A stretch of DNA of 64,000 nucleotides. It comes from Acidobacteriota bacterium (GTDB lineage Bacteria > Acidobacteriota > Blastocatellia > Pyrinomonadales > Pyrinomonadaceae). The stretch is taken from NCBI GenBank assembly GCA_031425275.1, contig JANPJA010000057.1, positions 1 through 64,000 of the forward strand, in the 5' to 3' direction. Made by a program: the position numbers and the translations under genes. The notes beneath the pieces are model-generated. The model did not search any database. It was not told the origin of the DNA and saw only the letters and a program-made list of their open reading frames with translations. The stretch's first letter is position 1. Each line of letters starts with the position of its first letter. Of this stretch, positions 6,852 to 52,457 are shown piece by piece.

Positions 6852-6883
6852 CCCGCGTTGTTTAGACGCGGGATTTTGTTTTG
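6852..6883 (+). promoter_or_regulatory. Leader hairpin followed by a U-run (attenuator/terminator-like) in the 5-prime UTR of the met gene fusion
   Basis: cccgcgttgtttagacgcggg stem followed by attttgttttg. It sits between the putative promoter and the start codon, as expected for riboswitch or attenuation control of a methionine-cycle gene. No SAM riboswitch consensus was recognised by eye. Confidence 0.35.
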
Positions 6884-17744: not shown

Positions 17745-17751
17745 ACGGCCG

Positions 17752-17866
17752 TCAACGGTAAACCGTGACGGGTGACGGGAGAGGACAACCTCTTTCCCGT
17801 CACCCGTCACGGTTCACCCGTCACGGCCTTTCCCCTGTCACCCGTCACGGTTTACTTGTTACGGAT
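17752..17866. repeat. Heptamer-repeat hairpin element, GTCACCC/GTCACGG family
   Basis: aaaccgtgacgggtgacggg ... cccgtcacccgtcacggttcacccgtcacgg...gtcacccgtcacggttt. It lies between the convergent 3-prime ends of the giant protein gene and thiG. Confidence 0.8.
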
Positions 17867-24713: not shown

Positions 24714-24832
24714 TTGTCAGTTGTCCGTGGTCAGTCGTTAGTGGTTTGTGACTGACCCGCGAATAGCCAAAGATGATCGTCCGAACTTCATCGGCACTAA
24801 ACAACTGACCACGGACAACTGACAACTGACAA
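24714..24832. repeat. Heptamer-repeat hairpin element, CAGTTGT/CCGTGGT family (nuoB-nuoC spacer)
   Basis: gtcagttgtccgtggtcagtcgttagtgg ... aacaactgaccacggacaactgacaactgacaaATG. It ends at the nuoC start codon. Confidence 0.8.
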
Positions 24833-25378
24833 ATGGCTGACATTGAGCGAGAAAAACAGTTGGCGGAGGGGGCGGCGGGCGACACCGCGGCGGGCGCGGC
24901 CGGAGAGTCGTTGCTCGTGAGCGCGTTGCGCGCGGCGCACCCCGAGTGCTTGGGCGAAGTCATACAGGCGTTTGGCGAGACGACCATTGTTGTGCCGCGC
25001 GAGCAAATTGTCGCGGCGTGCGGCTTTTACAAGACCACGCCCGGTCTTGAGTTCAACCTCCTCGCCGACATCTGCGGCGCGGATCGCGGCCCCGAAGACG
25101 ACCCTCGCTTCGAGGTCAACTATCATCTTTTCTCGACGACCAAGCACCACCGCCTGCGCCTGAAAGTCTTGCTCACGGAGGAAGACCCGCGCGTCGAGAC
25201 GGTCACGACGCTGTGGCGCACGGCCAACTGGCACGAGCGCGAGACCTTCGACATGTTCGGCGTGCGCTTCGACGGCCACCCCGACCTGCGCCGCATCCTG
25301 CTCCCGGACGACTGGCAGGGCCACGCGCTGCGGAAAGACTTCCCGCTGAGAGGGTACGAGCCGTACAGCTTAACTTAG
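24833..25378 (+). CDS. nuoC: NADH-quinone oxidoreductase subunit C (30 kDa)
   Basis: WHERETFDMFGVRFDGHPDLRRILLPDDW is the NuoC signature. Confidence 0.9.
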   Translation: MADIEREKQLAEGAAGDTAAGAAGESLLVSALRAAHPECLGEVIQAFGETTIVVPREQIVAACGFYKTTPGLEFNLLADICGADRGPEDDPRFEVNYHLFSTTKHHRLRLKVLLTEEDPRVETVTTLWRTANWHERETFDMFGVRFDGHPDLRRILLPDDWQGHALRKDFPLRGYEPYSLT

Positions 25379-25456
25379 TGACAGGTCAACCGTGACGGGT
25401 GACAAGTGAAAACCACTTGTCTTGCCTGTCACCTGTCACCCGTCACTTGTCACGCG
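25379..25456. repeat. Heptamer-repeat hairpin element, GTCACCC/GTCACGG family (nuoC-nuoD spacer)
   Basis: gacaggtcaaccgtgacgggtgacaagtg ... cctgtcacctgtcacccgtcacttgtcacgcg. It overlaps the 5-prime end of the track ORF for nuoD, so the later ATG was chosen for nuoD. Confidence 0.8.
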
Positions 25457-25461
25457 AACTT

Positions 25462-26682
25462 ATGAGTGCTTCTTCCGCCAACTTGCCGCCGCAGTTCGAG
25501 GTCGTGGATCGTCCGCTGGATTCGCAGATGACGATCTCGATGGGGCCGCAGCACCCTTCGACGCACGGCGTGCTGCGCATCGAGCTGGTGCTCGACGGCG
25601 AGATGATCGTCAAGGCCACGCCCGACATCGGCTACCTCCACACGGGGATGGAGAAGCTCTTCGAGTACAAGAAGTACCAGCAGGGCATCGTCATCACCGA
25701 CCGGATGGACTACCTCAACCCGCTGGGCAACAACCTCGCCTACGTGATGGCGGTCGAAAAACTGCTGGCTATCGAAATCCCGGAGCGCGCGCAGGTCATC
25801 CGCGTCCTCTTCTGCGAGTTGCAGCGCATCGCCTCGCACATGGTCTGGCTGGGGACGCACGCGCTCGACATCGGCGCGATGTCAGTTTTCTTTTACTGCT
25901 TCCGCGAGCGCGAGAAGATTCTCAACCTGATCGAGGCCGCTTCGGGCGGCCGGCTCACGCCGTCTTACTTCCGCATCGGCGGGCTGATGATGGACTTGCC
26001 GGCGGGTTTCGAGAGCCGCTGCCGCCAGTTCCTCGACAAGTTCCCGGCCGCGCTCTCCGACTTCAACACGCTGCTCACCGGCAACCGGATTTTCCAGAAG
26101 CGCACGCAGGGCGTCGGCCCCATCTCCGCCGAGGACGCCATCGATTGGGGTCTGACGGGGCCGTGTCTGCGCGGCAGCGGCGTTGACATCGACGTGCGCC
26201 GGACAAACCCCTACACGGGTTACGAGACCTACGACTTCGACGTGCCGGTCGAACAGGACTGCGACGTGTGGGCGCGCTACATGGTGCGGATGCGCGAACT
26301 GATGGAGTCGCACAAGATCGTGCGGCAGACTTTGGAGCGGCTCAAACCCGGCCCCGTGAAGGCCGACGCGCCGAAGGTGGTGCTCCCCGAGCGCGAGGCG
26401 ATGAAGACGCACATGGACGCGCTCATCCACCACTTCCTGATCGTCGCCGAAGGCTTCAACGTCCCGGCCGGAGAGGTCTATCACCCCATCGAAGGCTCGA
26501 AGGGCGAACTCGGCTGCTACGTCAAATCCGACGGCGGCCCGAAGCCCGCGCGCGTGCATTTCCGCGGCCCCTCGTTCGTCAACCTCTCGGCCCTGCCGCA
26601 CATGGCCGAGGGCGAGATGCTCGCCGACGTGGTCGCCATCATCGGCTCGATTGACATCGTGCTGGGAGAAATTGATAGGTGA
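25462..26682 (+). CDS. nuoD: NADH-quinone oxidoreductase subunit D (49 kDa)
   Basis: GPQHPSTHGVLR, DYLNPLGNNLAY, IASHMVWLGTHALDIGA and the C-terminal IVLGEIDR are present. The start was moved to ATG 25462 after the repeat element. Confidence 0.9.
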   Translation: MSASSANLPPQFEVVDRPLDSQMTISMGPQHPSTHGVLRIELVLDGEMIVKATPDIGYLHTGMEKLFEYKKYQQGIVITDRMDYLNPLGNNLAYVMAVEKLLAIEIPERAQVIRVLFCELQRIASHMVWLGTHALDIGAMSVFFYCFREREKILNLIEAASGGRLTPSYFRIGGLMMDLPAGFESRCRQFLDKFPAALSDFNTLLTGNRIFQKRTQGVGPISAEDAIDWGLTGPCLRGSGVDIDVRRTNPYTGYETYDFDVPVEQDCDVWARYMVRMRELMESHKIVRQTLERLKPGPVKADAPKVVLPEREAMKTHMDALIHHFLIVAEGFNVPAGEVYHPIEGSKGELGCYVKSDGGPKPARVHFRGPSFVNLSALPHMAEGEMLADVVAIIGSIDIVLGEIDR

Positions 26683-26685
26683 AGC

Positions 26686-26802
26686 CGTCAGTTGTCCGCG
26701 GTCAGTCATCCGTTGTTTGTGGCTGACACGCGGCGCGCTCTAAAGGGACACTCGAGCCTCGACGGCACGAACAACTGACCACGGACAACTGACCACTGAC
26801 AG
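26686..26802. repeat. Heptamer-repeat hairpin element, CAGTTGT/CCGTGGT family (nuoD-nuoE spacer)
   Basis: cgtcagttgtccgcggtcagtcatccgttgtttgtgg ... acgaacaactgaccacggacaactgaccactgacagcttttATG. It has the same 3-prime context as the copy at 6884..6992. Confidence 0.8.
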
Positions 26803-26807
26803 CTTTT

Positions 26808-27374
26808 ATGAGCGCACAGTTCACGCCGAATAACCCGCTGCCGCAGGAAGCGCCCGTGCCCGACGAGATGGCGAAGTTCTCGCCGGAGTTTGAGGCGGAG
26901 GTGGACGCGCACCTCGCGAAGTACCCGGTGCGGCGTTCGGCCATCCTGCCGCTGATGTTTCTCGTGCAGCGCGAGCGCGGCGGCTGGCTCGACCCTCCGG
27001 GCGTGGCTTATCTGGCCGACCGTCTGGGCCTTCGCATCACGGATATCTGGGAGGTCGCCACCTTCTATTCGATGATCAACACGGAGCCGGTCGGCAAGTA
27101 TCACCTGCAAATCTGCCGCACGCTCTCGTGCAAAATCATGGGCGCGGGGACGATCACGGAACACTGCTCGCGGCGGCTCGGCATCAAGCCCGGCGAGACG
27201 ACCGACGACGGGAACTTCACCATCTGGGAAGTCGAATGCCTCGGCTCGTGCGGCACCGCGCCGATGATGCAGCTCGGACTCGACTACCACGAGAACCTGA
27301 CGACCGAGAAGGTCGATGAGATTCTCGACCGCTGCCAGCGCGGAGAATACGAATTTCAAGTTAAGGTCCACTGA
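26808..27374 (+). CDS. nuoE: NADH-quinone oxidoreductase subunit E (24 kDa, 2Fe-2S)
   Basis: YPVRRSAILPLMFLVQRERGGWL, CRTLSC and ECLGSCGTAPMMQ are Cys motifs of the NuoE thioredoxin-like 2Fe-2S fold. Confidence 0.9.
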   Translation: MSAQFTPNNPLPQEAPVPDEMAKFSPEFEAEVDAHLAKYPVRRSAILPLMFLVQRERGGWLDPPGVAYLADRLGLRITDIWEVATFYSMINTEPVGKYHLQICRTLSCKIMGAGTITEHCSRRLGIKPGETTDDGNFTIWEVECLGSCGTAPMMQLGLDYHENLTTEKVDEILDRCQRGEYEFQVKVH

Positions 27375-27427
27375 GTCGCCGCCCGCGCGCGCAGAAATCG
27401 GCGTCGCGTGATTTAAGTTTTCTGTTT

Positions 27428-27460
27428 GGCTGATAGCTAAAAGCTGATAGCTAATAGCTC
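27428..27460. repeat. Short tandem repeat GCTGATAGCTAA / AGCTAATAGCT (related to the AGCTGTT element at 63301..63455) in the nuoE-nuoF spacer
   Basis: gctgatagctaaaagctgatagctaatagctcc read directly. Confidence 0.55.
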
Positions 27461-27478
27461 CTTTACGATTCGCTAATC

Positions 27479-28840
27479 ATGTTCATCGGCGCCATCGGCT
27501 GCGAGCCACTGCAACTTCGCCGCGTCCAACTAGAGGGGTCGCACACGCTCGACGTGTACCGTCAAAACGGCGGCTACGAGGCTTTGAAAAAAGTCCTCGA
27601 AGGGATGTCGCCCGACGAGGTGATCGGAGAGGTCAAGAAGTCCGCGTTGCGCGGGCGCGGCGGCGCGGGGTTCCCCACCGGGATGAAGTGGGGCTTCGTA
27701 CCCAAAGACTCGCCGAAGCCGAAGTACGTCGTCTGCAACGCCGACGAGTCGGAGCCGGGCACGTTCAAGGATCGCTTCCTGATGGAGCGCGATCCGCACA
27801 TGCTCATCGAGGGCATGGCCATCGCCGCCTACGCCCTCGGCTCGAAGACGGGCTACATCTACACGCGCGGCGAGTACCGCTACATCATTAACATCCTCGA
27901 CGCGGCCATCGCGGAGGCGCGCGCGGCCGGGCTGCTCGGCGAGCGTATTCTCGGCGCGGATTTCTCCTTCGAGCTGCACACGCACACCGGCGCGGGCGCG
28001 TACATCTGCGGCGAGGAGACGGCTCTGCTCAACTCGCTCGAAGGCTTGCGCGGCCACCCGCGCATGAAGCCCCCCTTCCCCGCCATCGCCGGACTCTACG
28101 GCTGCCCGACGGTCGTCAACAACGTCGAGACGCTCACCGCCGTCCCCGACATCATCAAGATGGGCGGCGAGGCGTGGCAGAAGTTGGGGACGGAGAAGAG
28201 CGGCGGCACGAAAGTCTGGTCGGTGTCGGGCCACGTCAACCGCCCCGGCGTCTATGAACTGCCGATGGGCTACGTGGACATGGAAAAGTTCATCATGGAG
28301 GACTGCGGCGGGATGCTCGGCGGGCGCAAACTCAAAGCCGTCATCCCCGGCGGCTCGTCCGTTTACATCATGCCCGCGCGCGACATCGAGGGGCGCGGCG
28401 TGAAGATGGATTACGAGGGGCTGGTCGCGGGCGGCTCGATGGTCGGCTCCGGCGGTTTCATCGTGATGGACGAGACAGTGGATATTTTTGAATCGACGAA
28501 GAACCTGACCGAGTTTTACAAACACGAGTCGTGCGGCTGGTGCACGCCGTGCCGGGAGGGCACGGACTGGCTCGTCAAAGTCTTCAAGCGGATCGCGCGC
28601 GGCGAGGGCAAGCCGGAGGACGCGCAACTTTTGCTCGACCTGTGCGACAACATCGAAGGCAAATCTTTCTGCCCGCTGGGCGACGCCGCCGCGTGGCCGA
28701 TCCAGTCGGCGATCAAGAAGTTTCCCGAAGACTTCCGCAAGCATCTCACGCCGATGGTCGAGCGCGTCGTGCGGGAGACGACCACCTCGGCGGCGGCCGT
28801 TCGGTCGGGCGCGGCGGTCGAGAGGCTGCCGACGGCTTGA
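27479..28840 (+). CDS. nuoF: NADH-quinone oxidoreductase subunit F (51 kDa, FMN/NADH binding)
   Basis: [52 protein letters not shown] and [12 protein letters not shown] motifs are present. Confidence 0.92.
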
Positions 28841-28901
28841 GTTAGTCGCGCGTGCTCCCGGCAGGCGTCGCGTTTTTTAAGATTAGTCAGTTGATTACAT
28901 C

Positions 28902-31199
28902 ATGGCAGAGTTAGTCAAAGTTACGGTCAACGGTCAGGACTACAGTGTCGAGAAGGGCGCGCGGCTCATCGACGTGTGCCGCGAGCAGGGTCACGCCGTC
29001 CCGTCGTTCTGCTACTACGCGGACCTCGCGTTACAGGCGTCGTGCCGGATGTGTCTGGTGCGCATCGAGAAGATGCCGAAGCTGCAAACGTCTTGCACCA
29101 TCACCTGCACGGACGGGATGATCGTCACGACCGAGAGCGAGGAGATCGAGAAGGCGCGGCGCGGGATGGTCGAGTTCCTGCTCGCCAACCACCCGCTCGA
29201 CTGCCCCGTCTGCGACCGCGGCGGCGAGTGCGAACTACAAGAGATGGTCTTCGACTGGGGCGGACTCGAAGAACGCTTCACCGAGAAGAAGAACGCCTTC
29301 CCCGAAAAGTTCCTCTCGCCCGTCGTCGCCAACGACCCGCAGCGGTGCATCCTCTGCAAGCGTTGCACGCGCGTCTGCGACGAGTGGATGGGAGAAGACG
29401 CCATCGAGGCGGGCGGGCGCGGCGTCAACACCGTCATCGGGACTTACGAAGGCTGGCTCAACTGCTCGCAGTGCGGCAACTGCATCGAAGTCTGCCCGAC
29501 GGGCACGCTCTTAGACGCCACCTACCGTCATCAGGCGCGGCCGTGGGAGTTGTCGCAGACGATCACGACCTGCACCTTCTGCTCCGACGGCTGCCAGATG
29601 TCCGTCGGCTCGCGCGCGGGCGAGGTGATGCGCGCGGTTGCGCGCGACCGCTATGTCAACGGCCACAACGGCGAATTCTTGTGCATCAAGGGCCGCTTCG
29701 CGCACCCGTTCGTCAACCACGAGGAGCGACTCAAGGGGCCGATGATTCGCTACAAGAAGGGCGGCCGGCTCGTCCCCGCGACGTGGGACGAGGCGATCCA
29801 CCGGATCACCGAAGGCTTCCACGCCGCGCTCGCGGCTTACGGGCCGGAAGGGTTCGGCGTGGTCGGCAGCCCGCGGCTGACCAACGAGGCCAACTGGTCG
29901 CTCTTACGTTTCGCGCGCGAGGTGGCGCAGACGGAGAACTTCGCGGCGGCCGAAGCCTTTTCGCTCGCGCCTTTCTTCCAGCATCTTTCCGCGCCCCTCG
30001 CCACGCACCGCGACATCCGGCACGCCAAGACCATCATCCTCGTCGGCGGCGAACCGGAAGAATTACAGCCGCTGGTCGGCCGTCAGATTCGGCAGGCCGT
30101 GCGGAACGGCGGGGCCAAGCTCGTCATCTTCAACAGCGTGCCGATCCGCTTGCGGGGGCAGGCCGCACACTTCGTCCACATCAACGCGGGGACGGAAGAC
30201 GCGGTCGTCCTCGCGCTTTCCGACGCCGCCGACGCGGGACTCGCGGCGGGTAAAACGGGCGTCGAGGCGCAGGTCATTGCCGACGTGCGCGAGTTGATCG
30301 ACGAGACGGCGGGCGATGTCGTCATCCTCTTCGGCGGCGAGTTGAGCGCGGCCGGGCAAGTCCTGCTCGCGCAACTTCCCGCGACTTGGGGCGGGCGTGA
30401 AGGGCGGCGTTTCCTCCTCCACCCGCTGCCGCTCTACAACAACAGCGTGGGCGTCCACGACGTGGGGCTGATGTCGGGCAAGCTCGACGCCGCCGGGATG
30501 CTCGCGCGCGCTGGCGACGGGATTCACACGCTCTACGTCGCGGGCAGCTTTTTGCCGCAGCACTTTGAAGGACACGCGGACGCACTGTCGAAGCTCGACT
30601 TCCTCGTCGTCCAAGAACTCTTCGAGACCGAGACGACGCGCTTTGCCGACGTGGTACTGCCGGCCGCGTCGTTCGCCGAGGTGGACGGGACTTACACGAA
30701 CAGCGGCGGCCTCGTCCAGCGCGTGCGCCAGTCGATCCCGCCCGTCCACACGGCGAAGCCCGACTGGATGATCACCGATTTGCTCGCGCGCGCGATGGGC
30801 GTCGAGTTCGGCTACGAGATGTCGGCGGGGCGCATCCTGATCGACCTCGCGCGAAACGTCGCGCCTTACGCCGGCCTGCGCTTCCCCGCCCTCAAGGACG
30901 AAACCGCGCCGGTGCAGGCGCGGCACGAAGTGGTCGGCGCGCGCGACGTGGCCGGTCACGCGCAAACTTTGCGCCGCCGCGTCGAGTCGTTCGTCGTGAC
31001 CGGGGAGCGCGAATCACAAACGCCGAGAGTCGGCCACGAGTTGTTCAAGCCCGGAACGCTCACGTCGAAAACGCCGCAGTTCCCGCTCCTCGACGCCGGC
31101 AACCCGAAGCCGCCGAGCGTGCTCATTTCGCCGCTCTACCAGATCACGGTCGATCCCGCTTTGCGCCGCGCGGAAGTCGCGTCCGCGACGGGAGACTGA
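28902..31199 (+). CDS. nuoG: NADH-quinone oxidoreductase subunit G (75 kDa)
   Basis: There is an N-terminal 2Fe-2S ferredoxin motif (CRMCLV), HPLDCPVCDRGGECELQ, CILCKRCTRVC and CSQCGNCIEVCP clusters, then a molybdopterin-oxidoreductase-like C-terminal region. Confidence 0.9.
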   Translation: MAELVKVTVNGQDYSVEKGARLIDVCREQGHAVPSFCYYADLALQASCRMCLVRIEKMPKLQTSCTITCTDGMIVTTESEEIEKARRGMVEFLLANHPLDCPVCDRGGECELQEMVFDWGGLEERFTEKKNAFPEKFLSPVVANDPQRCILCKRCTRVCDEWMGEDAIEAGGRGVNTVIGTYEGWLNCSQCGNCIEVCPTGTLLDATYRHQARPWELSQTITTCTFCSDGCQMSVGSRAGEVMRAVARDRYVNGHNGEFLCIKGRFAHPFVNHEERLKGPMIRYKKGGRLVPATWDEAIHRITEGFHAALAAYGPEGFGVVGSPRLTNEANWSLLRFAREVAQTENFAAAEAFSLAPFFQHLSAPLATHRDIRHAKTIILVGGEPEELQPLVGRQIRQAVRNGGAKLVIFNSVPIRLRGQAAHFVHINAGTEDAVVLALSDAADAGLAAGKTGVEAQVIADVRELIDETAGDVVILFGGELSAAGQVLLAQLPATWGGREGRRFLLHPLPLYNNSVGVHDVGLMSGKLDAAGMLARAGDGIHTLYVAGSFLPQHFEGHADALSKLDFLVVQELFETETTRFADVVLPAASFAEVDGTYTNSGGLVQRVRQSIPPVHTAKPDWMITDLLARAMGVEFGYEMSAGRILIDLARNVAPYAGLRFPALKDETAPVQARHEVVGARDVAGHAQTLRRRVESFVVTGERESQTPRVGHELFKPGTLTSKTPQFPLLDAGNPKPPSVLISPLYQITVDPALRRAEVASATGD

Positions 31200-31212
31200 A
31201 GGAAACGACGAA

Positions 31213-31331
31213 GCAGTTTTCAGTTTTCAGTTTTCAGCGAAGACAAAGGCAATTGGTCAGGGGTCAGGGGTCGGGTTTCGGAGATGACAAGTTTTCTCTC
31301 TGAAAACTGAAAACTGAAAACTGAAAACTGT
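31213..31331. repeat. Heptamer-repeat hairpin element, CAGTTTT family (nuoG-nuoH spacer)
   Basis: cagttttcagttttcagttttcag ... ctgaaaactgaaaactgaaaactgaaaactg flank a central ggtcaggggtcaggggtcggg. Confidence 0.8.
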
Positions 31332-31341
31332 CATCAACGTT

Positions 31342-32394
31342 ATGGAATGGCTGAGTAACATGCTGGGGCCGGACGCCGCGCGGGGCGTGGGGCAGTTTGT
31401 CGGCATCAACATCGCGTTCGTCGTGACGCTGATGATCGTGGCCTACACGGTGCTGGCCGAGCGGCGCATCCTCGGGTTCATACAGGGCCGGCTGGGGCCG
31501 AACCGCGTCGGGCCGGGCGGGATGCTACAGCCCTTCGCCGACCTGTTGAAGTTCATCTTCAAAGAGGAGATCGTCCCCGACAAGGCGACGCGCTTCGTCT
31601 ATTTCCTCGCCCCCATCATCGCCATCACGGCCGCGCTGATGTCGATCATCGTGTACCCGTTCGGCCCTGATGTGAACATCCCGTTCATTGGGACGGTGCG
31701 GCTCGTCGTGACGCAGTTCGACGTGGCCCTGCTTTACGTGTTGGCCGTCACCTCGGTCGGCGTTTACGGCATCGCGCTCGCCGGGTGGTCGTCGAACAAC
31801 AAGTACAGTCTGATGGGCGCGCTGCGCTCGTCGGCCCAGCTCATCTCTTACGAGTTGTCGCTGGGCCTCGGCATCGTCGGCGTCGTGATGCTCTCCGGCT
31901 CGCTCGATCTCTACCAGATCACGGAACAGCAGGGGGGCTACTGGTTCGGGTTCATCCCGAAGTGGAACATCTTCCCGCAGTTCATCGGCTTCGTCGTCTA
32001 TCTGATCTCGGCCATCGCCGAGACGAACCGCGTGCCGTTTGATTTGCCGGAAGCGGAGACGGAGCTGGTCGCGGGATTCCACACCGAGTACTCCGCCCTA
32101 AAGTTCGCGCTCTTCTTCATGGCCGAGTACGTCAACATGTTCACGGTCTCGGTGCTGGCGACGACTCTGTTTCTCGGCGGCTGGAACGGCCCCGGCGTCG
32201 GGACTTTCCCGCTGCTCGGCGTCGTTTACTTCCTGCTCAAAGTCTTTTTCTTTCTGTTCCTCTACATCTGGCTGCGGGGGACGCTGCCGCGCTTCCGCTT
32301 CGACCAGTTGATGAACTTCGGCTGGAAATTCCTGCTGCCGCTCGCCCTCGTCAACGTCGTGGTGACGGCGGCGGTGGTGTTCTACACGATGTGA
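31342..32394 (+). CDS. nuoH: NADH-quinone oxidoreductase subunit H
   Basis: GFIQGRLGPNRVGPGGMLQPFAD, GWSSNNKYSL.GALRS.AQ.ISYE and AETNR.PFDL.E.E.ELV.G are NuoH/ND1 signatures. Confidence 0.92.
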   Translation: MEWLSNMLGPDAARGVGQFVGINIAFVVTLMIVAYTVLAERRILGFIQGRLGPNRVGPGGMLQPFADLLKFIFKEEIVPDKATRFVYFLAPIIAITAALMSIIVYPFGPDVNIPFIGTVRLVVTQFDVALLYVLAVTSVGVYGIALAGWSSNNKYSLMGALRSSAQLISYELSLGLGIVGVVMLSGSLDLYQITEQQGGYWFGFIPKWNIFPQFIGFVVYLISAIAETNRVPFDLPEAETELVAGFHTEYSALKFALFFMAEYVNMFTVSVLATTLFLGGWNGPGVGTFPLLGVVYFLLKVFFFLFLYIWLRGTLPRFRFDQLMNFGWKFLLPLALVNVVVTAAVVFYTM

Positions 32395-32424
32395 GCTTCG
32401 GGGCCGCGCCTTCCGGCCCCCGCG

Positions 32425-33102
32425 TTGGATATGACGACTCTCCTCTTTATCGTGCTCGCCGCGCTCGCCGTCGGCTCCGCCGTCTCGCTCGTCGTACAGC
32501 GCAACCCGCTCTACTGCGCCATCTCGCTCATCTTCGTCTTCATGTCGCTGGCCGGCCTCTACCTGACGCTCGCGGCCCCGTTCATCGCCGCCATCCAGAT
32601 CATCGTCTACGCCGGCGCGATCATGGTGCTCGTCGTCTTCGTCATCATGCTGCTCAACGTCGAAGAGGAGGAGCGCAAGCCTTTACGCCTGCGTGCGCTC
32701 GTGCCGCTAGCCATCGTCGGCGCGGGACTCCTCTTCGCCGAGGCCGCGTTCATCCTCTACTGGGTCAACGAGTCGGGCGCGGATCGCGCGCGCTCCGTCG
32801 GGGCGGCCGACACGGGGCTGACGAAGACCATCGGGGCGGGGTTGTTCACGACTTACCTACTTCCCTTCGAGATCACTTCGCTGCTGATCTTGATGGCCAT
32901 CGTCGGCGCGATGACGCTCGCGCGCCGCGCGTCCGCAATTCGGCCGACGGACTTGGTCGTGCCCGGATCGTCCGTATTGGCGCGTCAAACTCTCACGCCG
33001 GAGCCTGACTCGGACGCGACGCCCGTTTACTCGCGCACGACTGACGAGGCCGAACACGCGCTCGGTCTCGCGGGAGTGCCCCACCGGAGGGAGGAAGATT
33101 AA
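32425..33102 (+). CDS. nuoJ: NADH-quinone oxidoreductase subunit J
   Basis: The NuoJ/ND6-like TM pattern is present ([63 protein letters not shown]). It starts only 30 nt after the nuoH stop, leaving no room for nuoI. Confidence 0.85.
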
Positions 33103-33103
33103 G

Positions 33104-33406
33104 ATGATCCCTCTGTCGTGGTATCTGGCCCTCTCGGCCGTGCTGTTCACCATCGGCGTCGCGGGCGTCGTCATCAAGCGCAACGCCATCGCCATGTTCA
33201 TGTGCATCGAGCTGATGCTCAACGCCGTGAACCTGACGCTCGTCGCCTTCTCCACCTACTTCCACGACGTGACGGGCCAACTCTTCGTCTTCATCGTGAT
33301 GACGGTCGCCGCCGCCGAAGCCGCCGTGGGCTTAGGCATCATCATCACCGTCTTCCGCAACCGCGAATCGCTCGACGTGGACGACGCGAGTGTGCTGAGG
33401 AACTGA
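33104..33406 (+). CDS. nuoK: NADH-quinone oxidoreductase subunit K
   Basis: 100 aa. [34 protein letters not shown] and [12 protein letters not shown] are typical of NuoK/ND4L. Confidence 0.92.
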
Positions 33407-33412
33407 AAACCG

Positions 33413-33536
33413 CCCGTGGTCAGTTGTCCGTGGTCAGTTGTTTGTGCTTCATCAACGGACTTCTTGATCGGGAAGCCGCAGGCCACGACAGCGAAAAAAC
33501 AACGGACCACGAACAACTGACCACGGACAACTGACA
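33413..33536. repeat. Heptamer-repeat hairpin element, CAGTTGT/CCGTGGT family (nuoK-nuoL spacer)
   Basis: ccgtggtcagttgtccgtggtcagttgtttgtg ... cacgaacaactgaccacggacaactgacaATG. It ends directly at the nuoL ATG. Confidence 0.8.
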
Positions 33537-35795
33537 ATGCTCCGCTACATCATCTTCGCCCCGCTCGTCGGCGCGGCCATCAACTGGCTGGTCGGCCGGC
33601 GGCTGCGCAGCGAGGCGTTTTCCGGCGTCGTCGCGTGCGCTTCGGTACTCGTGTCCGCGCTCGCGGCCTTCTACGTCGCCTTCCGACCCGGCGACGGCGT
33701 GCTCGTCTCGCAAGGGACGCAGCCGGTTCTCGATCACTTGTGGACGTGGCTTCAGGTCGGCTCCTTCCGCGCGGACTTCGGGTTCGCGATGGACAGGTTG
33801 AGCGCGATCTACGTCTGCTTCATCACCTTCGTCGGCTTCCTGATCCACCTCTTCGCGACCGGCTACATGCACGGCGACCGAAGCTTCTACAGGTTCTTCG
33901 CTTACCTGAACCTGTTCATGTTCATGATGCTCACGCTCGTGCTGGCCGACAACCTGCTCCTGATGTTCGTCGGCTGGGAGGGCGTCGGACTCTGCTCGTA
34001 TCTTTTAATCGGCTACTACATCGACCGGAAAGAGGCGGGCGACGCGGCGAAGAAGGCTTTCGTCGCCAACCGCGTCGGCGACTGGGGCGTGATCATGGGC
34101 ATCATGCTCGTCTTCACGCTGACGGGATCGATCAGCTTCTTCGACAAGTCGTCCGCGGCGGTCGGGGGCGGCGCGGGCGTCGAGAGCGCGCTGCGACTCG
34201 TCGGGGGCATGGCCGCCGACCCGTTCTCGTGGGGCGCGCTCGTCGCGGGCGGTCTCACCTCGGCCGCCCTGCTCCTGTTCATCGGCGCGACGGGCAAGTC
34301 CGCGCAGATACCGCTCTTCGTCTGGCTGCCCGACGCGATGGCCGGGCCGACTCCGGTCTCCGCGCTCATCCACGCGGCGACGATGGTGACGGCGGGCGTC
34401 TATATGATCGTCCGCTGCTCCGAGATTTACGTCCACGCGCCCGCCGCGATGTTCATCGTCGCCGTCATCGGCGCGGCCACCGCGCTCTTCGCCGCGACCA
34501 TCGGCATCGCCCAGAACGACATCAAGAAGGTCTTGGCCTACTCGACCGTCTCGCAGCTCGGTTACATGATGCTCGCGTGCGGGGTCGGCGCGTTCGCCGC
34601 CGCGATCTTCCCCGTGATGACACACGCCTTCTTCAAGGCCCTGCTCTTCCTCGGCTCCGGCTCCGTCATCCACGGGATGCACCACGAGCAGGACATGCGG
34701 CGGATGGGCGGCCTCAAGAAATACATGCCCATCACCTTCGCCGCGATGGCCGTCGGGTGGCTCGCCATCAGCGGCTTCCCGCTCCTCTCCGGCTTCTTCT
34801 CGAAGGACGAGATTCTCTGGAAGACCTGGAGCGCGGACGTGGCCGGCTACCCGGCGGGTTTGGGTAAGGCCCTTTGGTTCGTCGGCGCGTTGACGGCCCT
34901 CGTCACGGCCGTTTACATGACGCGCCTGATGGTGATGACCTTCTGGGGCGCCGAACGGTTTCGCGAGGCGCACGCGGGCGCACCGGCCGACGAGGCGCAC
35001 GGCCACGGCAGCCCCGTTGATTCCGTCCACGCCGGGGATGACGAGCATGACGAGCACGCGCATCACGGCCCCTTCGAGCCGCGCGAGTCGCCCTGGACGA
35101 TGACCGTGCCGCTAATCGTGCTGGCGGTATTATCGGCCGTCGGCGGACTTGTCGGCGTCCCATACGCATTGAGCGGCGGCAAGATTCCCAACTACTTCGA
35201 GCACGCGCTCGAACCCGTCATCGCCCACGCACCGCAGCAGCACGGCGGCGGCGCGCACGCCGCGCCCGCGACGGCGCACGGCACAGCGGAGACTCTGCAA
35301 ACGCCGCCCGCGCACGGCAACGAGGGTGCCGCTCCGCAGTCCGTCGGCGAGGGCGGGTCCGGGGCCTCCGGCACACACCCGGCCGAACCGGCGCACGACC
35401 CGGCCGAGGTCGCGCAGGAGCGTCTGTTCACGGGCATTTCAGTACTCATCGGACTCATCGGCATCGCCGCCGGCTGGCTCTACTTCAAAAAACACCCGCT
35501 CGCGCGAATGCCCCGCCTGCTGGAAAACAAGTATTACGTTGACGAGGCTTATGACGCGGCCGTCATCAACCCGATCAAGCGCGGCTCGCGCTCGGTGCTG
35601 TGGAAGTTCTTTGATCTGGCCGTCATCGACGGGCTGGTGAACGGCGCGGCGCGTGCCGCCCAAAACTTGGGCGGCGTCGCCCGCCGTCTCCAGTTCGGCT
35701 TCGTGCGCGGCTACGCCGCCGTCATCCTCGTCGGCGCGCTCGCCGTCATCGGCTACTTCGCCTACATGTTCGGCAGCGGAAATTTCGGAAGATAA
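33537..35795 (+). CDS. nuoL: NADH-quinone oxidoreductase subunit L, unusually long (752 aa) with two His/Ala/Gly-rich loop insertions
   Basis: NuoL/ND5 core motifs are present (GWEGVGLCSYLLIGYY, AMAGPTPVSALIHAATMVTAGVY, HAFFKALLFLGSGSV). The insertions are HGHGSPVDSVHAGDDEHDEHAHHG and HAPQQHGGGAHAAPATAHGTAE... Confidence 0.88.
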   Translation: MLRYIIFAPLVGAAINWLVGRRLRSEAFSGVVACASVLVSALAAFYVAFRPGDGVLVSQGTQPVLDHLWTWLQVGSFRADFGFAMDRLSAIYVCFITFVGFLIHLFATGYMHGDRSFYRFFAYLNLFMFMMLTLVLADNLLLMFVGWEGVGLCSYLLIGYYIDRKEAGDAAKKAFVANRVGDWGVIMGIMLVFTLTGSISFFDKSSAAVGGGAGVESALRLVGGMAADPFSWGALVAGGLTSAALLLFIGATGKSAQIPLFVWLPDAMAGPTPVSALIHAATMVTAGVYMIVRCSEIYVHAPAAMFIVAVIGAATALFAATIGIAQNDIKKVLAYSTVSQLGYMMLACGVGAFAAAIFPVMTHAFFKALLFLGSGSVIHGMHHEQDMRRMGGLKKYMPITFAAMAVGWLAISGFPLLSGFFSKDEILWKTWSADVAGYPAGLGKALWFVGALTALVTAVYMTRLMVMTFWGAERFREAHAGAPADEAHGHGSPVDSVHAGDDEHDEHAHHGPFEPRESPWTMTVPLIVLAVLSAVGGLVGVPYALSGGKIPNYFEHALEPVIAHAPQQHGGGAHAAPATAHGTAETLQTPPAHGNEGAAPQSVGEGGSGASGTHPAEPAHDPAEVAQERLFTGISVLIGLIGIAAGWLYFKKHPLARMPRLLENKYYVDEAYDAAVINPIKRGSRSVLWKFFDLAVIDGLVNGAARAAQNLGGVARRLQFGFVRGYAAVILVGALAVIGYFAYMFGSGNFGR

Positions 35796-35799
35796 TTTT

Positions 35800-37362
35800 A
35801 TGGAGCAATATCTGCTCACCATCCTGATTCTGGTGCCCGCCGTCGGCGCGCTCGCCGTCGCGGGCCACGCCCTCGCGCCGTATAAGCGCGAGGCGCATTA
35901 CCGCCTCATCGCGCTCGCCTTCTCGGTCGCGACTTTCCTGCTCTCGCTGCTCCTGCTGCGGGGCGACAGCTCCGCGCCTGGCTTCCGCTTCGAGCAGGAC
36001 ACGAACTGGATCGGGGCCATCGGCGCGCACTACCACGTCGGCGTGGACGGCATCAGTTTGTGGCTCGTGCTGCTGACCACGCTGCTCGTGCCCATCGCGA
36101 TCTTGTCGAGCTGGCACGCGGTCGAGAAGAAACCGGCCGCCTTCTACGCCTTCCTGCTGATACTCGAAGGCGCGATGATCGGCGTCTTCGTCTCGCTCGA
36201 CCTGCTCGTCTTCTACCTCTTCTTCGAGGCGTCGCTGGTGCCGATGTTCTTCCTCATCGGCGTCTGGGGCGGCGAGCGCAGGGTCTACGCCTCGGTCAAG
36301 TTCTTCATCTACACGGCGGTCGGCTCGCTCCTGATGCTCGCCGCGATCATCGCGCTCTGGAGCTACTTCGGCACCTTCGACTACCCGACCATCCTACTCA
36401 AACTAGCCGACGGCGTGCCCTACTCGCCGCGCGTCGAGTTCCTGCTCTTCTTCGCCTTCGCCATCGCCTTCTGCATTAAGGTTCCCGTCTGGCCCCTGCA
36501 CACGTGGCTGCCCGACGCGCACACCGAGGCCCCGACGGCCGGCTCCGTCATCCTCGCGGGAGTGCTGCTGAAGATGGGGACTTACGGGCTGCTGCGTTTC
36601 AACTTCGCGCTCTTCCCCGAGTCCGCGCGCCGCTTCGCGTCGTTCTTCATCGTGCTCGCCGTCATCGGCATCATCTACGGCGCGCTCGTGGCAATGGTGC
36701 AGCCGGACGTGAAGCGACTGGTCGCCTACTCGTCGGTCAGCCACATGGGATTCATCATGCTGGGGCTGTTCTCGTTCACGGACGAGGGGATGCAGGGCGC
36801 GCTCTACCAGATGTTGAATCACGGCGTCTCGACCGGGGCGTTGTTCCTGATCGTCGGGATGATCTACGAACGCCGGCACACGCGGCAGATATCGGATTTC
36901 GGCGGGCTCGCGAAGCCGATGCCGTGGTTCGCCACGTTCTTCGTCATCGCGTCGCTCTCGTCGGTGGGGCTGCCGCTCTTGAACGGCTTCGTCGGAGAGT
37001 TTCTGATCATGCTCGGGATGTGGACTTCGCTGGTCGATTTCGCGGGGTGGATGAACCCGCGCGTGGTGACGATGATTGCGGGCACCGGGGTCATCTGGGC
37101 GGCCGTGTACATGCTCTGGATGTTGCAGCGCGTCCTCTTCGGCCGGGTCAGGAACCCGGCCAACGCCGGGCTGCGCGATTTGTCGGCGCGCGAGATCGGG
37201 TTGCTCCTGCCGCTGCTCGCGCTGATGCTCTACATGGGCGTCTATCCGCGCCCGTTCCTCGGCCGCTCCGAAGGGTCGGTCCGAATGGCGCGCGAGCGCG
37301 TGACTAATTCGGGCGGCGGCGGCACGGCGCAACTCCAGTTGACGCCGGAGTTGAAACGATGA
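35800..37362 (+). CDS. nuoM: NADH-quinone oxidoreductase subunit M
   Basis: Start placed at ATG 35800 (MEQYLLTILILVP), 5 nt after the nuoL stop. The upstream part of the track ORF overlaps nuoL out of frame. ND4-like motifs are present (WLPDAHTEAPTAGSVILAGVLLKMGTYG). Confidence 0.9.
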   Translation: MEQYLLTILILVPAVGALAVAGHALAPYKREAHYRLIALAFSVATFLLSLLLLRGDSSAPGFRFEQDTNWIGAIGAHYHVGVDGISLWLVLLTTLLVPIAILSSWHAVEKKPAAFYAFLLILEGAMIGVFVSLDLLVFYLFFEASLVPMFFLIGVWGGERRVYASVKFFIYTAVGSLLMLAAIIALWSYFGTFDYPTILLKLADGVPYSPRVEFLLFFAFAIAFCIKVPVWPLHTWLPDAHTEAPTAGSVILAGVLLKMGTYGLLRFNFALFPESARRFASFFIVLAVIGIIYGALVAMVQPDVKRLVAYSSVSHMGFIMLGLFSFTDEGMQGALYQMLNHGVSTGALFLIVGMIYERRHTRQISDFGGLAKPMPWFATFFVIASLSSVGLPLLNGFVGEFLIMLGMWTSLVDFAGWMNPRVVTMIAGTGVIWAAVYMLWMLQRVLFGRVRNPANAGLRDLSAREIGLLLPLLALMLYMGVYPRPFLGRSEGSVRMARERVTNSGGGGTAQLQLTPELKR

Positions 37363-38936
37363 GCTTGAGTTTCGCTTTTCAGACGATCCCGGCGCTTTCG
37401 CCCGACGTGAACATGCGGCTGCTGCTGCCGGAATTGATCGTCTCGCTCGCGGGCGTGCTGGTCATGCTGGCCGATGCTTTCACCCGAAAGATCGAGCGGC
37501 GCTGGCTGACCGGCGGGATCGCGCTCGCCGGACTCGGCGCGGCCGCCGCCGCCTGTTTCGCGCTCTGGGGCGACGCCGAGGCCCAAGCCTTCAACGGCAT
37601 GATCGTCTTGAACCGGCTGCGGCTCTCCTTCACGCTCGTCTTCCTCGTCGTCTCCGCGCTCACCGTGCTGGTCTCGATGATCTGGGTCGAGTGGGAGCAT
37701 CTGCCGGCGGGCGAGTTCCATTCGCTGCTCTTGTTCGCCACCGTCGGGATGATGCTGATGGCGTCGGGCGGCGATCTCGTCATTATCTTCCTCGGCCTCG
37801 AACTGCTCTCGATCGCGACCTACGTGATGGCCGGGTTTCGCCGCACCGATCTGCGCTCTAACGAGTCTTCGATGAAATACTTCATCCTCGGCTCGTTCTC
37901 GTCGGCCTTCCTCCTCTACGGCATCGCGCTCGTTTACGGCGGGACGGTGACGGCCGCGGGCGGCGCGGGCACGACCAATTTGCGACTGATCGCCGAGCGC
38001 GTCGGCGAAGGCCCCTACCCCGTGCTGCTCTACGCGGGCGCGGCGCTGTTAATCGTCGGGTTCGGATTCAAAATCGCGACCGCGCCGTTCCACGTCTGGA
38101 CGCCGGACGTGTACGAGGGCGCGCCGACCCCCGTCACGGCCTTCATGGCCGCCGGGCCGAAGGCGGCGGGCTTCGCGGGCTTCATGTCGGTCTTCCTCAT
38201 CGCCTTCCCCTCGGTCGCGGGTAACGCGGCGGCGTCGCAACTCCACGAGGCGTGGCTTAACGCTCTAGTCGTCATCGCGATTCTGACCATGACGGTCGGC
38301 AACCTCGCCGCCCTCGTCCAGTCGAACGTCAAGCGGATGCTGGCCTACTCTTCCATCGCGCACGCGGGCTATGCCCTCGTCGGCTTCATCGCGGCGGGGG
38401 CGGCCAACGGCGGGACGAAACAGCAGGAGGCGACCGGCGCGGTCGTCTTCTACCTGCTCGCATACGCCGTGATGAACCTCGGCGCGTTCGCCGTCGTCAC
38501 CCTCATCGCGCGGGGCGGCGACCGGCGGACGGAAATCGAGGACTACCACGGCATTGGTTTTAGCGCGCCCGCCCTGTCGGCCGCGCTCACGCTCTTCATG
38601 CTCAGTTTGCTGGGCGTGCCGCTGACCGCCGGGTTCATGGGCAAGGTGCTGGTCTTCCGCTCGGCGTTGGGTCAGACCGAGCAGGGGCCGCAGTATGCGT
38701 GGCTCGTCGTCGTCGCCGTCGTCAACACGGCCATCTCGGCTTACTACTACTTGCGGCTCGTCATCGTGATGTTCTTCCGCGAGCGCATGAGCGCGTGGGC
38801 CGCGCCGCGCGTGCCGGCGAGCATCGCGCTCGCGCTCGTGCTGACGGCGGCCGGCGTCCTTTATCTGGGCATCTTTCCGGGGCGGCTCATCGACGCCCTC
38901 CGCGTTGCGGAGACATCGGTCGGTCGGCTAAAGTAG
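37359..38936 (+). CDS. nuoN: NADH-quinone oxidoreductase subunit N
   Basis: The stop/start overlap ATGA with nuoM. It is ND2-like (GLELLSIATYVMAGF, FKIATAPFHVWTPDVYEGAPTPVTAF). Confidence 0.9.
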   Translation: MSLSFAFQTIPALSPDVNMRLLLPELIVSLAGVLVMLADAFTRKIERRWLTGGIALAGLGAAAAACFALWGDAEAQAFNGMIVLNRLRLSFTLVFLVVSALTVLVSMIWVEWEHLPAGEFHSLLLFATVGMMLMASGGDLVIIFLGLELLSIATYVMAGFRRTDLRSNESSMKYFILGSFSSAFLLYGIALVYGGTVTAAGGAGTTNLRLIAERVGEGPYPVLLYAGAALLIVGFGFKIATAPFHVWTPDVYEGAPTPVTAFMAAGPKAAGFAGFMSVFLIAFPSVAGNAAASQLHEAWLNALVVIAILTMTVGNLAALVQSNVKRMLAYSSIAHAGYALVGFIAAGAANGGTKQQEATGAVVFYLLAYAVMNLGAFAVVTLIARGGDRRTEIEDYHGIGFSAPALSAALTLFMLSLLGVPLTAGFMGKVLVFRSALGQTEQGPQYAWLVVVAVVNTAISAYYYLRLVIVMFFRERMSAWAAPRVPASIALALVLTAAGVLYLGIFPGRLIDALRVAETSVGRLK

Positions 38937-38940
38937 GGCC

Positions 38941-39017
38941 GTGAGCCGTCAAACGTCAACCGTGACAAGCGAGCCTTCGGCACTCCCTTGTCACGGTTGA
39001 CGTTTGACGGTTGACGG
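38941..39017. repeat. Hairpin element, GTCAACCGTGACAAG variant of the GTCACGG family (after nuoN)
   Basis: ccgtcaaacgtcaaccgtgacaagcgagccttcggcactcccttgtcacggttgacgtttgacggttgacgg is a near-perfect long palindrome. It probably also acts as the operon terminator structure. Confidence 0.8.
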
Positions 39018-39024
39018 CATTTTT

Positions 39025-52295: not shown

Positions 52296-52457
52296 GTCAG
52301 TGGTCAGTGGTCAGTGGTCAGTTGTTTGTCGTCATTAACCTTGCGCGTTTCTATGCGTGGGTCGAGTTTGCCAAGCACGAACCACTGACCACTGACCACT
52401 GACCACCGACCACTGACCACTGACCACTGACCACTGACCACTGACCACTGACCACCA
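52296..52457. repeat. Asymmetric heptamer tandem repeat hairpin: about 3.5 x CAGTGGT on the left arm, 11 x CACTGAC/CACCGAC on the right arm
   Basis: Read directly. The right arm ends caaccctATG at the start of the next gene. Confidence 0.85.

Follow-up and report, generated by a model that had tools for sequence, protein, structure and literature searches.

Heptamer-array hairpins in the window

We analysed 64 kb of DNA from a soil member of the Pyrinomonadaceae (Acidobacteriota, Blastocatellia), hereafter the window, that carries a nuoA-N operon for complex I. Six hairpins whose arms are tandem arrays of 7-nucleotide (nt) units lie in the B-C, C-D, D-E, G-H, K-L and post-N gaps of this operon, together with a one-armed array in the E-F gap. 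From these and related loci, a general description of the elements is well supported: they are 80-160 bp of non-coding DNA, composed of a G/T-rich 7-nt array, a loop of 3-85 nt and a complementary C/A-rich, G-poor array. It is equally well supported that they sit in short spacers, mostly within operons, that their units change in both arms together, and that they are gained, lost, replaced and copied. The identities of the nuo genes in the window were confirmed, and the relatives of its NuoC are Pyrinomonadaceae and Blastocatellia proteins (best match 91% identity), in agreement with the GC-rich, non-cyanobacterial context recognised in an earlier sequence-only reading of this DNA.

Tandem arrays were located with Tandem Repeats Finder (TRF) and their arms were paired by an inverted-repeat search. 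Long hairpins were those with arms of ≥18 nt and ≥80% complementarity, with the period taken as the best autocorrelation lag. RNA fold z-scores were computed from 200 shuffles, and a gap with z < −3 was called strongly structured. TRF reported arrays of period 7 or 14, the latter being two alternating 7-nt units, at 6950, 17796, 24716/24801, 25425, 26766, 27429, 31214/31300, 33414/33498, 38993, 52296/52381, 59041/59085 and 63302/63409, and the arms pair over 18-41 nt with 82-100% complementarity. The best lag is 7 or 14 in 11 of the 20 long hairpins, and we count 11 strict period-7 tracts against 0.54 expected (maximum 2 in 50 first-order Markov simulations). The eleven heptamer hairpins (at 6884, 17752, 24714, 25379, 26686, 31213, 33413, 38941, 52296, 59033 and 63301) fold stably: their RNA folding free energies (ΔG) lie between −37.5 and −78.9 kcal/mol and their z-scores between −4.6 and −10.7, and none of 200 shuffles was as good.

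The 12 heptamer sites of the window are as follows (ΔG in kcal/mol):

6881..6992, plus strand: hairpin, CAGTGGT/CAGTTGT/CCGTCGT ... ACAACCG/ACCACGG/ACAACTG, in the leader of a homocysteine S-methyltransferase/MTHFR gene (ATG 6998), 3′ of a SAM-II riboswitch (6748-6823); ΔG −55.2, z −6.9
17743..17866, no strand: hairpin, GTGACGG ... CCGTCAC, with a second copy of the 3′ arm at 17831-17864, filling the convergent gap between a gene of 1763 amino acids (aa; stop 17744) and thiG (stop 17868); ΔG −72.2, z −8.7
24714..24832, plus strand: nuoB-nuoC hairpin, CAGTTGT/CCGTGGT ... ACAACTG/ACCACGG, beginning 4 nt past the nuoB stop and running up to the nuoC ATG (24833); ΔG −56.0, z −7.9
25377..25456, plus strand: nuoC-nuoD hairpin, GTGACGG/GTGACAA ... 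CTGTCAC/CCGTCAC, touching the nuoC stop codon, its last base 5 nt before the nuoD ATG (25462); ΔG −37.5, z −4.8
26681..26807, plus strand: nuoD-nuoE hairpin, CAGTTGT/CCGCGGT ... ACAACTG/ACCACGG, pairing from the stop codon to the CTTTT ahead of ATG 26808; ΔG −55.3, z −4.6
27428..27460, plus strand: one-armed direct array, GCTGATA GCTAAAA GCTGATA GCTAATA, with no hairpin (TRF period 7/14; gap fold z −0.9), 18 nt upstream of the nuoF ATG
31213..31331, plus strand: nuoG-nuoH hairpin, (CAGTTTT)3.4 ... (CTGAAAA)4.4, 24-nt arms 100% complementary; ΔG −53.5, z −6.75
33413..33536, plus strand: nuoK-nuoL hairpin, alternating CCGTGGT/CAGTTGT (period 14) ... ACAACTG/ACCACGG, abutting the nuoL ATG (33537); ΔG −63.5, z −7.3
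38938..39018, plus strand: post-nuoN hairpin, CCGTCAA/ACGTCAA/CCGTGAC ... GTCACGG/TTGACGT/TTGACGG, 36-nt arms 92% complementary, directly 3′ of the nuoN stop codon and followed by the CATTTTT-ATG of the next open reading frame (ORF); ΔG −64.7, z −10.7
52296..52457, plus strand: largest element, (GTCAGTG)4 ... (ACCACTG)10.7, the 3′ arm by far the longer, flanked by genes for an FHA/multihaem cytochrome (stop 52290) and a ferredoxin/pyridine-nucleotide oxidoreductase (ATG 52463); ΔG −78.9, z −8.2
59033..59110, minus strand: hairpin, GTGACGG/GTGACAG ... CTGTCAC/CCGTCAC, flanked on the minus strand by genes for cytochrome c assembly (stop 59112) and a TPR protein (start 59007); ΔG −51.9, z −5.3
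63301..63455, no strand: hairpin, TAGCTGT ... GCTAACA, filling a convergent-gene gap, its loop holding a nested perfect 16-bp hairpin and then a terminator-like U-rich run; ΔG −75.3, z −9.9

The sequence-only reading had listed 14 hairpins with tandem 7-nt arms, seven of them inside nuo. Eleven of these sites stand. Six rather than seven are nuo hairpins, because the site at 27428-27460 is a direct array only, and this one-armed array, in a gap with little predicted structure, was rejected from the hairpin family. The palindromes at 40-118 and 55496-55594 were also rejected as heptamer-family members since their CTCTGCG motif recurs at irregular 8-11 nt spacing, with a best lag of 9 or 11 and no period of 7.

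The copies at 6884, 24714, 26686 and 33413 have common arms and a common length, and those at 6884 and 26686 also share the 3′ end ...GGACAGCTTTT-ATG. Upstream of the copy at 6884 is a SAM-II aptamer (SAM_alpha, RF00521; 6748-6823, plus strand) that scores 42 bits against a gathering score of 36 and is the only Rfam match in the window. The 112-nt hairpin separates this aptamer from the ATG of the homocysteine S-methyltransferase/MTHFR fusion gene (6998-8911), a distance of about 175 nt unless the hairpin folds out. No Rfam family covers the heptamer elements at gathering thresholds, and a sigma-70 promoter scan of the nuo region found one site only, upstream of nuoA, and none in the loops. 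The loop of the G-H element holds an unpaired G-rich heptamer array, GGTCAGG GGTCAGG GGTCGGG (31252-31276). This array resembles the G-quadruplex-prone heptamers of Xanthomonas and Nostoc, and a GGGGTCA-based hairpin fills the D-E gap of a related locus (L011).

Anatomy, position and turnover across the family

Our comparison set consists of 84 orthologous nuo loci (1.29 Mb) from Pyrinomonadaceae and Blastocatellia, given here codes such as L001. They contain 282 long hairpins, 179 with a best lag of 7 or 14. Period-7 hairpins are intergenic in 162 of 174 cases and coding in 3, though 87.5% of the DNA is coding, and intergenic tandem tracts of period 7 number 297, as against 12, 12 and 5 for periods 6, 8 and 9. 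With hundreds of copies in relatives, 5 of the 11 window hairpins outside nuo and at least 120 metagenome matches, the elements are a dispersed family, as had been proposed, and not operon-specific terminators.

Anatomy was scored on 78 cleanly paired elements between co-directional genes. The median distance from the upstream stop codon to the 5′ arm is 2 nt, and that from the 3′ arm to the downstream start codon is 4 nt; the loop has a median length of 21 nt (range 3-85). The element therefore takes up nearly all of the spacer, with the stop and start codons adjacent at the foot of the stem. G and C make up 29% and 9% of the G/T-rich 5′ arm, and these shares are reversed in the 3′ arm (C 29%, G 9%); G exceeds C in the 5′ arm of 72 of the 78 elements, and C exceeds G in the 3′ arm of 71 of 75. 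The same G-first polarity holds among the metagenome matches listed (57 G-first hairpins, no C-first) and in viral contigs (12 versus 0), and both the hupS-asr0689 spacer of Nostoc and the “convergent” Xanthomonas pairs are G-first as well. We rejected the arm order relative to transcription (116 versus 33, with no unit found in both arms) as strand-specific evidence, since a palindrome has an identical arm order on either strand.

Two further observations hint at strand specificity: the longer arm is the 3′ one in 42 elements versus 25, and one-armed arrays just upstream of an ORF start have the C/A-rich reading in 16 cases and the opposite reading in 4. The cores ACTG/CTGA and TCAC/ATCA recur in 3′ arms, and ATG is mildly depleted in 3′-arm units (2 versus 5.6). 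To explain a period indivisible by 3 we considered stop codons in all reading frames, and rejected them because their enrichment is mild and not universal (36 of 77 3′-arm units versus 28.5 expected). Shine-Dalgarno sequences are rare in this lineage: among its leaders, which are depleted in G, a Shine-Dalgarno-like motif occurs in 14% as against 7% in a control window, and the T content at −10 to −1 is 32% without elements and 35% with them. Some elements are nested: the C-D gap of L063 has a complete AGCTGTT/AACAGCT hairpin within a GTGATGA/TCATCAC loop, L103 has a GGTTTTT/AAAAACC hairpin within a CAGTTGT one, and the window element at 63301-63455 is of the same kind. This nesting suggests that the loops are themselves insertion sites.

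Occupancy differs sharply between the junctions of the operon. Strongly structured gaps were found at B-C in 31/57 species, at C-D in 39/66, at D-E in 45/68, at G-H in 34/49 and at K-L in 31/48, as against 0/58 at A-B, 7/61 at E-F, 6/49 at F-G and 3/49 at H-J. Strong hairpins are thus present in 54-69% of species at the first five junctions and in 0-12% at the other four. The E-F and H-J gaps are often ≥40 nt long, yet they seldom have a hairpin. The density of elements is 2.2 per kb of spacer in the nuo gaps and 0.14-0.30 in flanking spacers. The occupied junctions divide the operon into AB / C / D / EFG / HJK / LMN.

The sequences that occupy these positions turn over rapidly. Among 149 elements we found 66 canonical units, including CAGTTGT, AGCTGTT, GTGATGA, GTGACGG, TTGCGGA, TTTTAGA, TTTCAAG, CAGTAAG and GAAGGAT. 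Units are shared, within one mismatch, by 17% of comparisons in the same genome, 8% at the same gap in other genomes and 4.6% in the background. A series of G-H orthologues with a constant 3′ flank passes through GAGGGAT, GAAGGAT, GAACGAT and GAATGAT, and the other arm changes to match. In an alignment of this element from 18 species, both sides have changed in 14 of 30 stem pairs, and 84% of cells are paired, compared with 35-55% when the partner is slid by 1-3 columns; none of 500 shuffles reached the observed value.

Elements also come, go and are exchanged as wholes. The window and L004 have nuoD genes that are 94% identical, and their units differ in all three common gaps. Between L011 and L019 (96% identical) the D-E and G-H elements are unrelated, and one of the two has a filled K-L gap of 107 nt, the other an empty one of 11 nt. 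The D-E junction of L067 is simply TGAATG, and L068 and L030 carry an element there precisely between the stop codon and the ATG. The presence/absence polymorphism for which a comparison of related nuo operons had been suggested is therefore seen between genomes with 94-96% identical nuoD. One family (TTTTGGA/TTTTAGA, with a common interior of ~55 nt and 81% column identity) occupies C-D and G-H in L023, D-E in L036 and L046, and H-J in L060, and paralogous elements within one genome were found at B-C and C-D in L010 and at B-C and D-E in L069.

Several window elements have identifiable orthologues. The B-C family is orthologous in L001 and L014, the C-D family has a similar centre (GTGACAAGT-loop-ACTTGTCTT) in L008, L009, L010 and L013, the D-E loop is orthologous, with a TCGAG core, in L001 and L002, and one-armed GCTAACA arrays orthologous to the E-F array are present in L002 and L006. 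The window thus has its B-C family in common with L001 and not with its closest relative L004, whose AGCTGTT family is in turn common to L002 and L006. That the alleles do not follow gene similarity suggests that lineages have exchanged them by homologous recombination.

The mobility of a MITE-like family, also proposed before, is borne out as copy-and-paste behaviour only. No target-site duplication was found in filled/empty pairs (L011/L019 at K-L; L068 and L030 versus L067 at D-E; L060/L036 at H-J), no transposase or RAYT turned up in a scan of 30 window proteins, and the element ends vary by family and have no conserved motif. A loop-only BLAST for insertion orientation returned too few matches to score.

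The elements occur well beyond this family. The K-L element is the source of an exact 23-mer, GTCAGTTGTCCGTGGTCAGTTGT, from its CAGTTGT/CCGTGGT array, that we found in at least 120 metagenome contigs with a GC content of 0.38-0.67. In one of these (L088) the neighbouring gene is closest to Latescibacterota proteins, and in another (L091) QueA is 84% identical to a protein from a Desulfobacteraceae metagenome-assembled genome. Arrays of (CAGTTGT)n, including G-first hairpins, are also present in predicted viral contigs of IMG/VR (L205-L239, GC 0.36-0.70), sometimes several per contig. One of these contigs, UViG_3300043379_000009 (42.5 kb), has at least 5 such arrays; a low-GC phage group has one identical array context, and in L239 the array adjoins TAACTGA repeats.

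Palindromes of other kinds share the same genomes. A separate CTCTGCG/CGCAGAG family is found at 23-111 and 55484-55615 of the window and at 1807-1902 of L035, its copies having GCGTCTCTGCGGTGAAT in common; the 55484-55615 copy folds at −86 kcal/mol (z −10.5) and is not period-7. An inverted repeat at 18773-18909, between thiG and a Band-7 gene, has 27-nt arms that are 96% complementary (TGTAGGGGCGGGGCTTGTCCCTGCCCG ... CGGGCAGGGACAAGCCCTGCCCCTACA) around an 83-nt spacer and is not heptameric. A period-9 variant, TCTGGAGAG, is present in L035 and L039. Within the operon, the nuoE-nuoF (27375-27425) and nuoF-nuoG (28845-28880) gaps have a GC-rich hairpin followed by a U-run (for example GUCGCGCGUGCUCCCGGCAGGCGUCGCGUUUUUU), which are classical terminator-like motifs; the E-F and F-G junctions seldom carry heptamer hairpins in any species. 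In more distant Blastocatellia (L080, L082, L083, L084, L053 and L042) non-heptamer composite palindromes, such as ...GGCTTCGCCGCCTGATGTGCGGTAAGGC..., lie in the same nuo gaps (E-F, G-H and K-L). The same nuo junctions are taken by differing hairpin types.

We also noted that nuoI is absent between nuoH and nuoJ in the window (32394-33102) and in the relatives inspected, and that L001 has an extra ORF of 148 aa between nuoF and nuoG (L001 16890-18686). Elsewhere in the window, positions 8000-12000 have a lower GC content (0.55-0.60 versus ~0.65), and three ORFs there, 9008-9802(−), 9807-11054(−) and 11305-12369(+), have no Pfam match; this segment may be acquired DNA.

Proposed operon punctuation and competing explanations

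Of several explanations we consider “operon punctuation” the most likely, and we hold it tentatively, with a probability a little short of even. The element would be transcribed within the polycistronic mRNA and fold into a stem of 20-40 bp. The base of the stem would bring the upstream stop next to the downstream start, and a spacer of 80-130 nt could then act as a very short one for ribosome hand-over. The start-side arm, G-poor and free of Shine-Dalgarno-like motifs, would match the leaders of the lineage. A long duplex at the fixed junctions AB / C / D / EFG / HJK / LMN may also block exonucleases and possibly provide an RNase III site.

The 7-nt period most likely stems from slippage, by which the arrays would be generated, and probably not from any factor that reads 7-nt units. 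Among long simple-sequence repeats heptamers are the most frequent, and polymerase slippage has been proposed to explain this (Mrazek 2007, as cited in PMC4679880). For the G-first polarity we offer two conjectures. A strand-specific C/A-rich leader array might have gained its complement on the sole free side, upstream; alternatively, the order might avoid exposing a C-rich, G-poor (Rho-loading-like) arm before its partner is made.

A number of observations weigh against operon punctuation, of which we infer every functional step from sequence. Each preferred junction is without a strong hairpin in about one third to one half of species, some of these gaps being <40 nt, so the hairpin is dispensable. 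Because the palindrome is identical on both strands, the G-first order is a property of the element and no evidence for a function of the sense strand. An RNA stem under purifying selection is expected to be enriched in G.U pairs. In the sense strand of these stems we count 97 G.U and 104 A.C mismatches, with no excess of G.U. A test that might have favoured selection on the RNA, and with it the mRNA stability or processing role suggested in the sequence-only reading, thus came out negative, and the complementarity may consequently be kept at the DNA level, by copying or quasi-palindrome correction, which would also yield covariation. Length differences between related elements are multiples of 7 in only 9 of 63 cases, which is chance level. 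Lastly, two window elements (17743 and 63301) separate convergent genes and so have no start codon beside them, and Xanthomonas pairs lie ~160 nt from the next start; a rationale based on start codons is therefore not the whole story.

The main rival holds that the elements are purely selfish or neutral palindromes, copied by themselves or by host recombination and replication into harmless spacers, where the hairpin would only render them harmless by folding aside and the nuo junctions would be safe havens without a function for the element. We regard this as rather unlikely. In its favour are the presence/absence and wholesale replacement between genomes whose flanking genes are 94-96% identical, the paralogous copies, loops included, in different gaps, one array in several phyla and in viral contigs, the lack of a G.U over A.C excess, and the lack of a conserved motif among 66 units in 149 elements. 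A copy between a riboswitch aptamer and a start codon, with no obvious role there, and the unrelated palindromes in the same nuo gaps of distant Blastocatellia point the same way. However, a neutral account sits poorly with occupancy that is so uneven among gaps of similar length (54-69% versus 0-12%), with a nuo density eight times that of neighbouring spacers, and with a pattern that persists over ~80 species despite fast turnover, for which a benefit or a strong site-specific filter is the easier explanation. Nor did we find the transposase, terminal motif or target-site duplication of a mobile element.

Growth in place without mobility is less probable still, and we think it improbable as a full account. 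Here 7-nt slippage would expand a seed and quasi-palindrome correction would copy changes to the other arm, combined with rapid local evolution and recombination of alleles. The graded G-H unit series, with its constant 3′ flank and matched changes in the other arm, is what such a process would leave, as are the symmetric G.U and A.C mismatches and the alleles that are incongruent with nuoD/NuoC similarity (the window B-C element grouping with L001 and not L004); slippage of heptamers has been proposed for bacteria generally (PMC4679880). Against this, junctions that measure 0-11 nt in one genome hold whole elements in a closely related one, one family has the same interior in four different gaps, the differences in length show no excess of multiples of 7, and identical arrays in different phyla are left unexplained.

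We find it very unlikely that the elements are transcription attenuators or terminators, in which a hairpin with a frequent U-rich run would stop some polymerases, giving a descending gradient of expression, and would end convergent transcription. A CTTTT or TTTT does precede the ATG after several elements (6992, 26802, 39017 and many relatives), two window elements lie between convergent genes (17743 and 63301, the latter with a nested canonical terminator-like hairpin), and the Xanthomonas heptamer pairs average 28 nt past the upstream ORF. However, complex I requires its subunits in equal amounts, and as many as six terminators in succession would leave the distal genes short of transcripts. 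A scan with the intrinsic-terminator consensus found only small sub-hairpins within 33414-33433 and 33507-33526 and not the elements themselves; it rejects the heptamer hairpins because their loops are too long and their U-runs are short or absent in many (...ACTGACA-ATG, ...CACGCGAACTT-ATG). Moreover, U-richness before starts is general in the lineage, differing little with and without elements, and the classical GC-rich hairpins with U-runs are already held by E-F and F-G, without heptamers.

Just as poor a prospect is a protein-binding role, in which a cold-shock protein, ribosomal protein S1 or the like would bind the array multivalently, each domain recognising ~7 nt of single-stranded RNA or DNA, and the complementary arm would compete for the array and so gate access. 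A period of strictly 7 nt across very different units, C/A-rich arrays directly upstream of start codons (one-armed ones included), the recurring 3′-arm cores and the same proposal made for TAACTGA repeats (PMC4679880) speak for it. Against it, the diversity of units within one genome, and even within a single operon, is too great for sequence-specific reading, we identified no candidate protein, and the period can also be explained by mutation. We rejected one sequence-specific binding factor as a general explanation because the units differ between the gaps of one operon.

A broader form of operon punctuation is also conceivable, which we consider doubtful: heptamer-array hairpins would be sequence-free, structure-defined punctuation that is retained at the boundaries of complex I transcript modules across the family and shared, with identical units and G-first polarity, by Acidobacteriota, Cyanobacteria, Desulfobacterota, Latescibacterota-like bacteria, Xanthomonas and phages. 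If this were true, a conserved machine (the ribosome, RNA polymerase, Rho, or a replication or repair enzyme) would generate or read 7-nt periodic CAGTNNN/NNNACTG arrays; alternatively, a non-coding element would spread between phyla without its own transposase.

One essential operon in ~80 species separates what is constrained (architecture, position, polarity and a G-poor start-side arm) from what is free (sequence). This unusually clean comparative system converts an old puzzle into hypotheses that can be tested, on translational coupling, the stability of mRNA segments and Rho avoidance in Shine-Dalgarno-poor bacteria, and the identical arrays across phyla and viruses pose the question of how a non-coding element of ~100 bp spreads or re-arises. 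At a practical level, the hairpins will break short-read assemblies and, because start codons are drawn into the arrays, will confuse gene callers.

Relation to known heptamer repeats and palindromes

STRR heptamer repeats have been known since 1990, and it is well supported that the elements described here are palindromic heptamer elements of the STRR type, a class that is itself known. Like STRRs they are tandem heptamers, intergenic, often in operons for multi-subunit complexes, and present in many copies per genome. The STRR resemblance noted in the sequence-only reading is closer than was claimed, since the csR1.1 repeat of Nostoc PCC 7120, ttgtcagttgtcagttgtca, is (TTGTCAG)n, identical to (CAGTTGT)n, and has 44 copies (PMC2408588 Table 3). 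In the hupS-asr0689 spacer of the same genome, a (TTGTCAG)n array is followed by a complementary-type array, ccactgactactgac (PMC2408588), so that both the unit and the G-first arrangement are the same as here. A hairpin has also been reported in the hupS-hupL spacer of N. punctiforme (PMC2661322). Among the units found here, the comparison with cyanobacterial repeats covered chiefly CAGTTGT. STRRs differ in their hosts, which are heterocystous cyanobacteria rather than a GC-rich acidobacterium, in that the paired hairpin is an occasional remark there and the rule here, and in a far smaller repertoire of units (66 or more here).

Two further groups of heptamer repeats make it too strong to say, as had been said, that the elements belong to no described family: besides STRRs, TAACTGA repeats (PMC4679880) and the convergent heptamer pairs of Xanthomonas (PMC4692102) have been described. 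TAACTGA repeats occur in marine Beggiatoaceae, some Cyanobacteria and Bacteroidetes, immediately ahead of start codons in settings poor in Shine-Dalgarno sites (MacGregor 2015, PMC4679880). They resemble the present elements in ending a few nt from the start codon in the sense orientation (median 4 nt for our 3′ arms), in being patchy across phyla, and in belonging to genomes or leaders with rare Shine-Dalgarno sites; some 3′ arms here are one substitution off (CAACTGA, AAACTGA). Exact tandem TAACTGA was not found in the window or the 84 related loci, where CAACTGA and AAACTGA arrays come nearest. Unlike our hairpins, TAACTGA repeats use one unit and are nearly all one-armed, with 169 direct sets to one indirect set (PMC4679880).

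In Xanthomonas, GGGAATC repeats form 70-75 convergent (G-first) inverted array pairs per genome that are capable of forming stem-loops (Rehm et al. 2015, PMC4692102). These pairs are ~90% intergenic, mostly between co-directional genes, and transcribed, with array lengths that vary among species (PMC4692102). Two inverted G-first arrays in one spacer are the common feature (here 72 of 78 elements have the G-rich arm first). The Xanthomonas pairs, however, use the single G-quadruplex-prone unit GGGAATC, whereas units here are mostly without G-runs, GGGGTCA (the 31252-31276 loop and L011 D-E) being the exception. They also lie 28 nt from the end of the upstream ORF and 160 nt from the next start (PMC4692102), and their positions are largely kept between Xcc and Xac without replacement of the unit.

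REP, REPIN and BIME sequences are likewise short non-coding palindromes of spacers, often within operons, with inverted doublets of ~100 nt, families within a genome and proposed roles in mRNA stabilisation and termination. REPs are 20-40 nt long and tied to the RAYT transposase, a Y1 enzyme. Each is one imperfect palindrome headed by a conserved GTAG or CGTC (PMC3733652). The arms described here are instead tandem arrays with no conserved GTAG/CGTC head, and the window showed no RAYT gene. MITEs such as Correia elements share small size, a non-coding and hairpin-forming nature, presence/absence polymorphism and paralogues with a common interior. The present elements differ from them in having no target-site duplication in filled/empty comparisons and no known parent insertion sequence, and in having arms that are internally repetitive and better conserved than the interiors.

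The long intercistronic stem-loops of phage T7 and of chloroplasts offer a functional analogy only, in that long duplexes lie exactly between cistrons, define segments, and protect or process ends. The RNase III sites of phage T7 and the chloroplast intercistronic hairpins are experimentally shown and conserved in sequence, whereas the elements here are free in sequence and known from sequence alone.

In the literature searched we found no heptamer repeats of this kind in Acidobacteria or Pyrinomonadaceae, nor descriptions of the hairpin form as the rule, of positional conservation with unit turnover, or of a universal polarity. The feature is real and striking, and to the world of heptamer repeats it adds a new host phylum, strictness of architecture, retention at specific positions while the sequence is free, the concerted evolution of two arms, copy-and-paste behaviour, and the identity of units across phyla.

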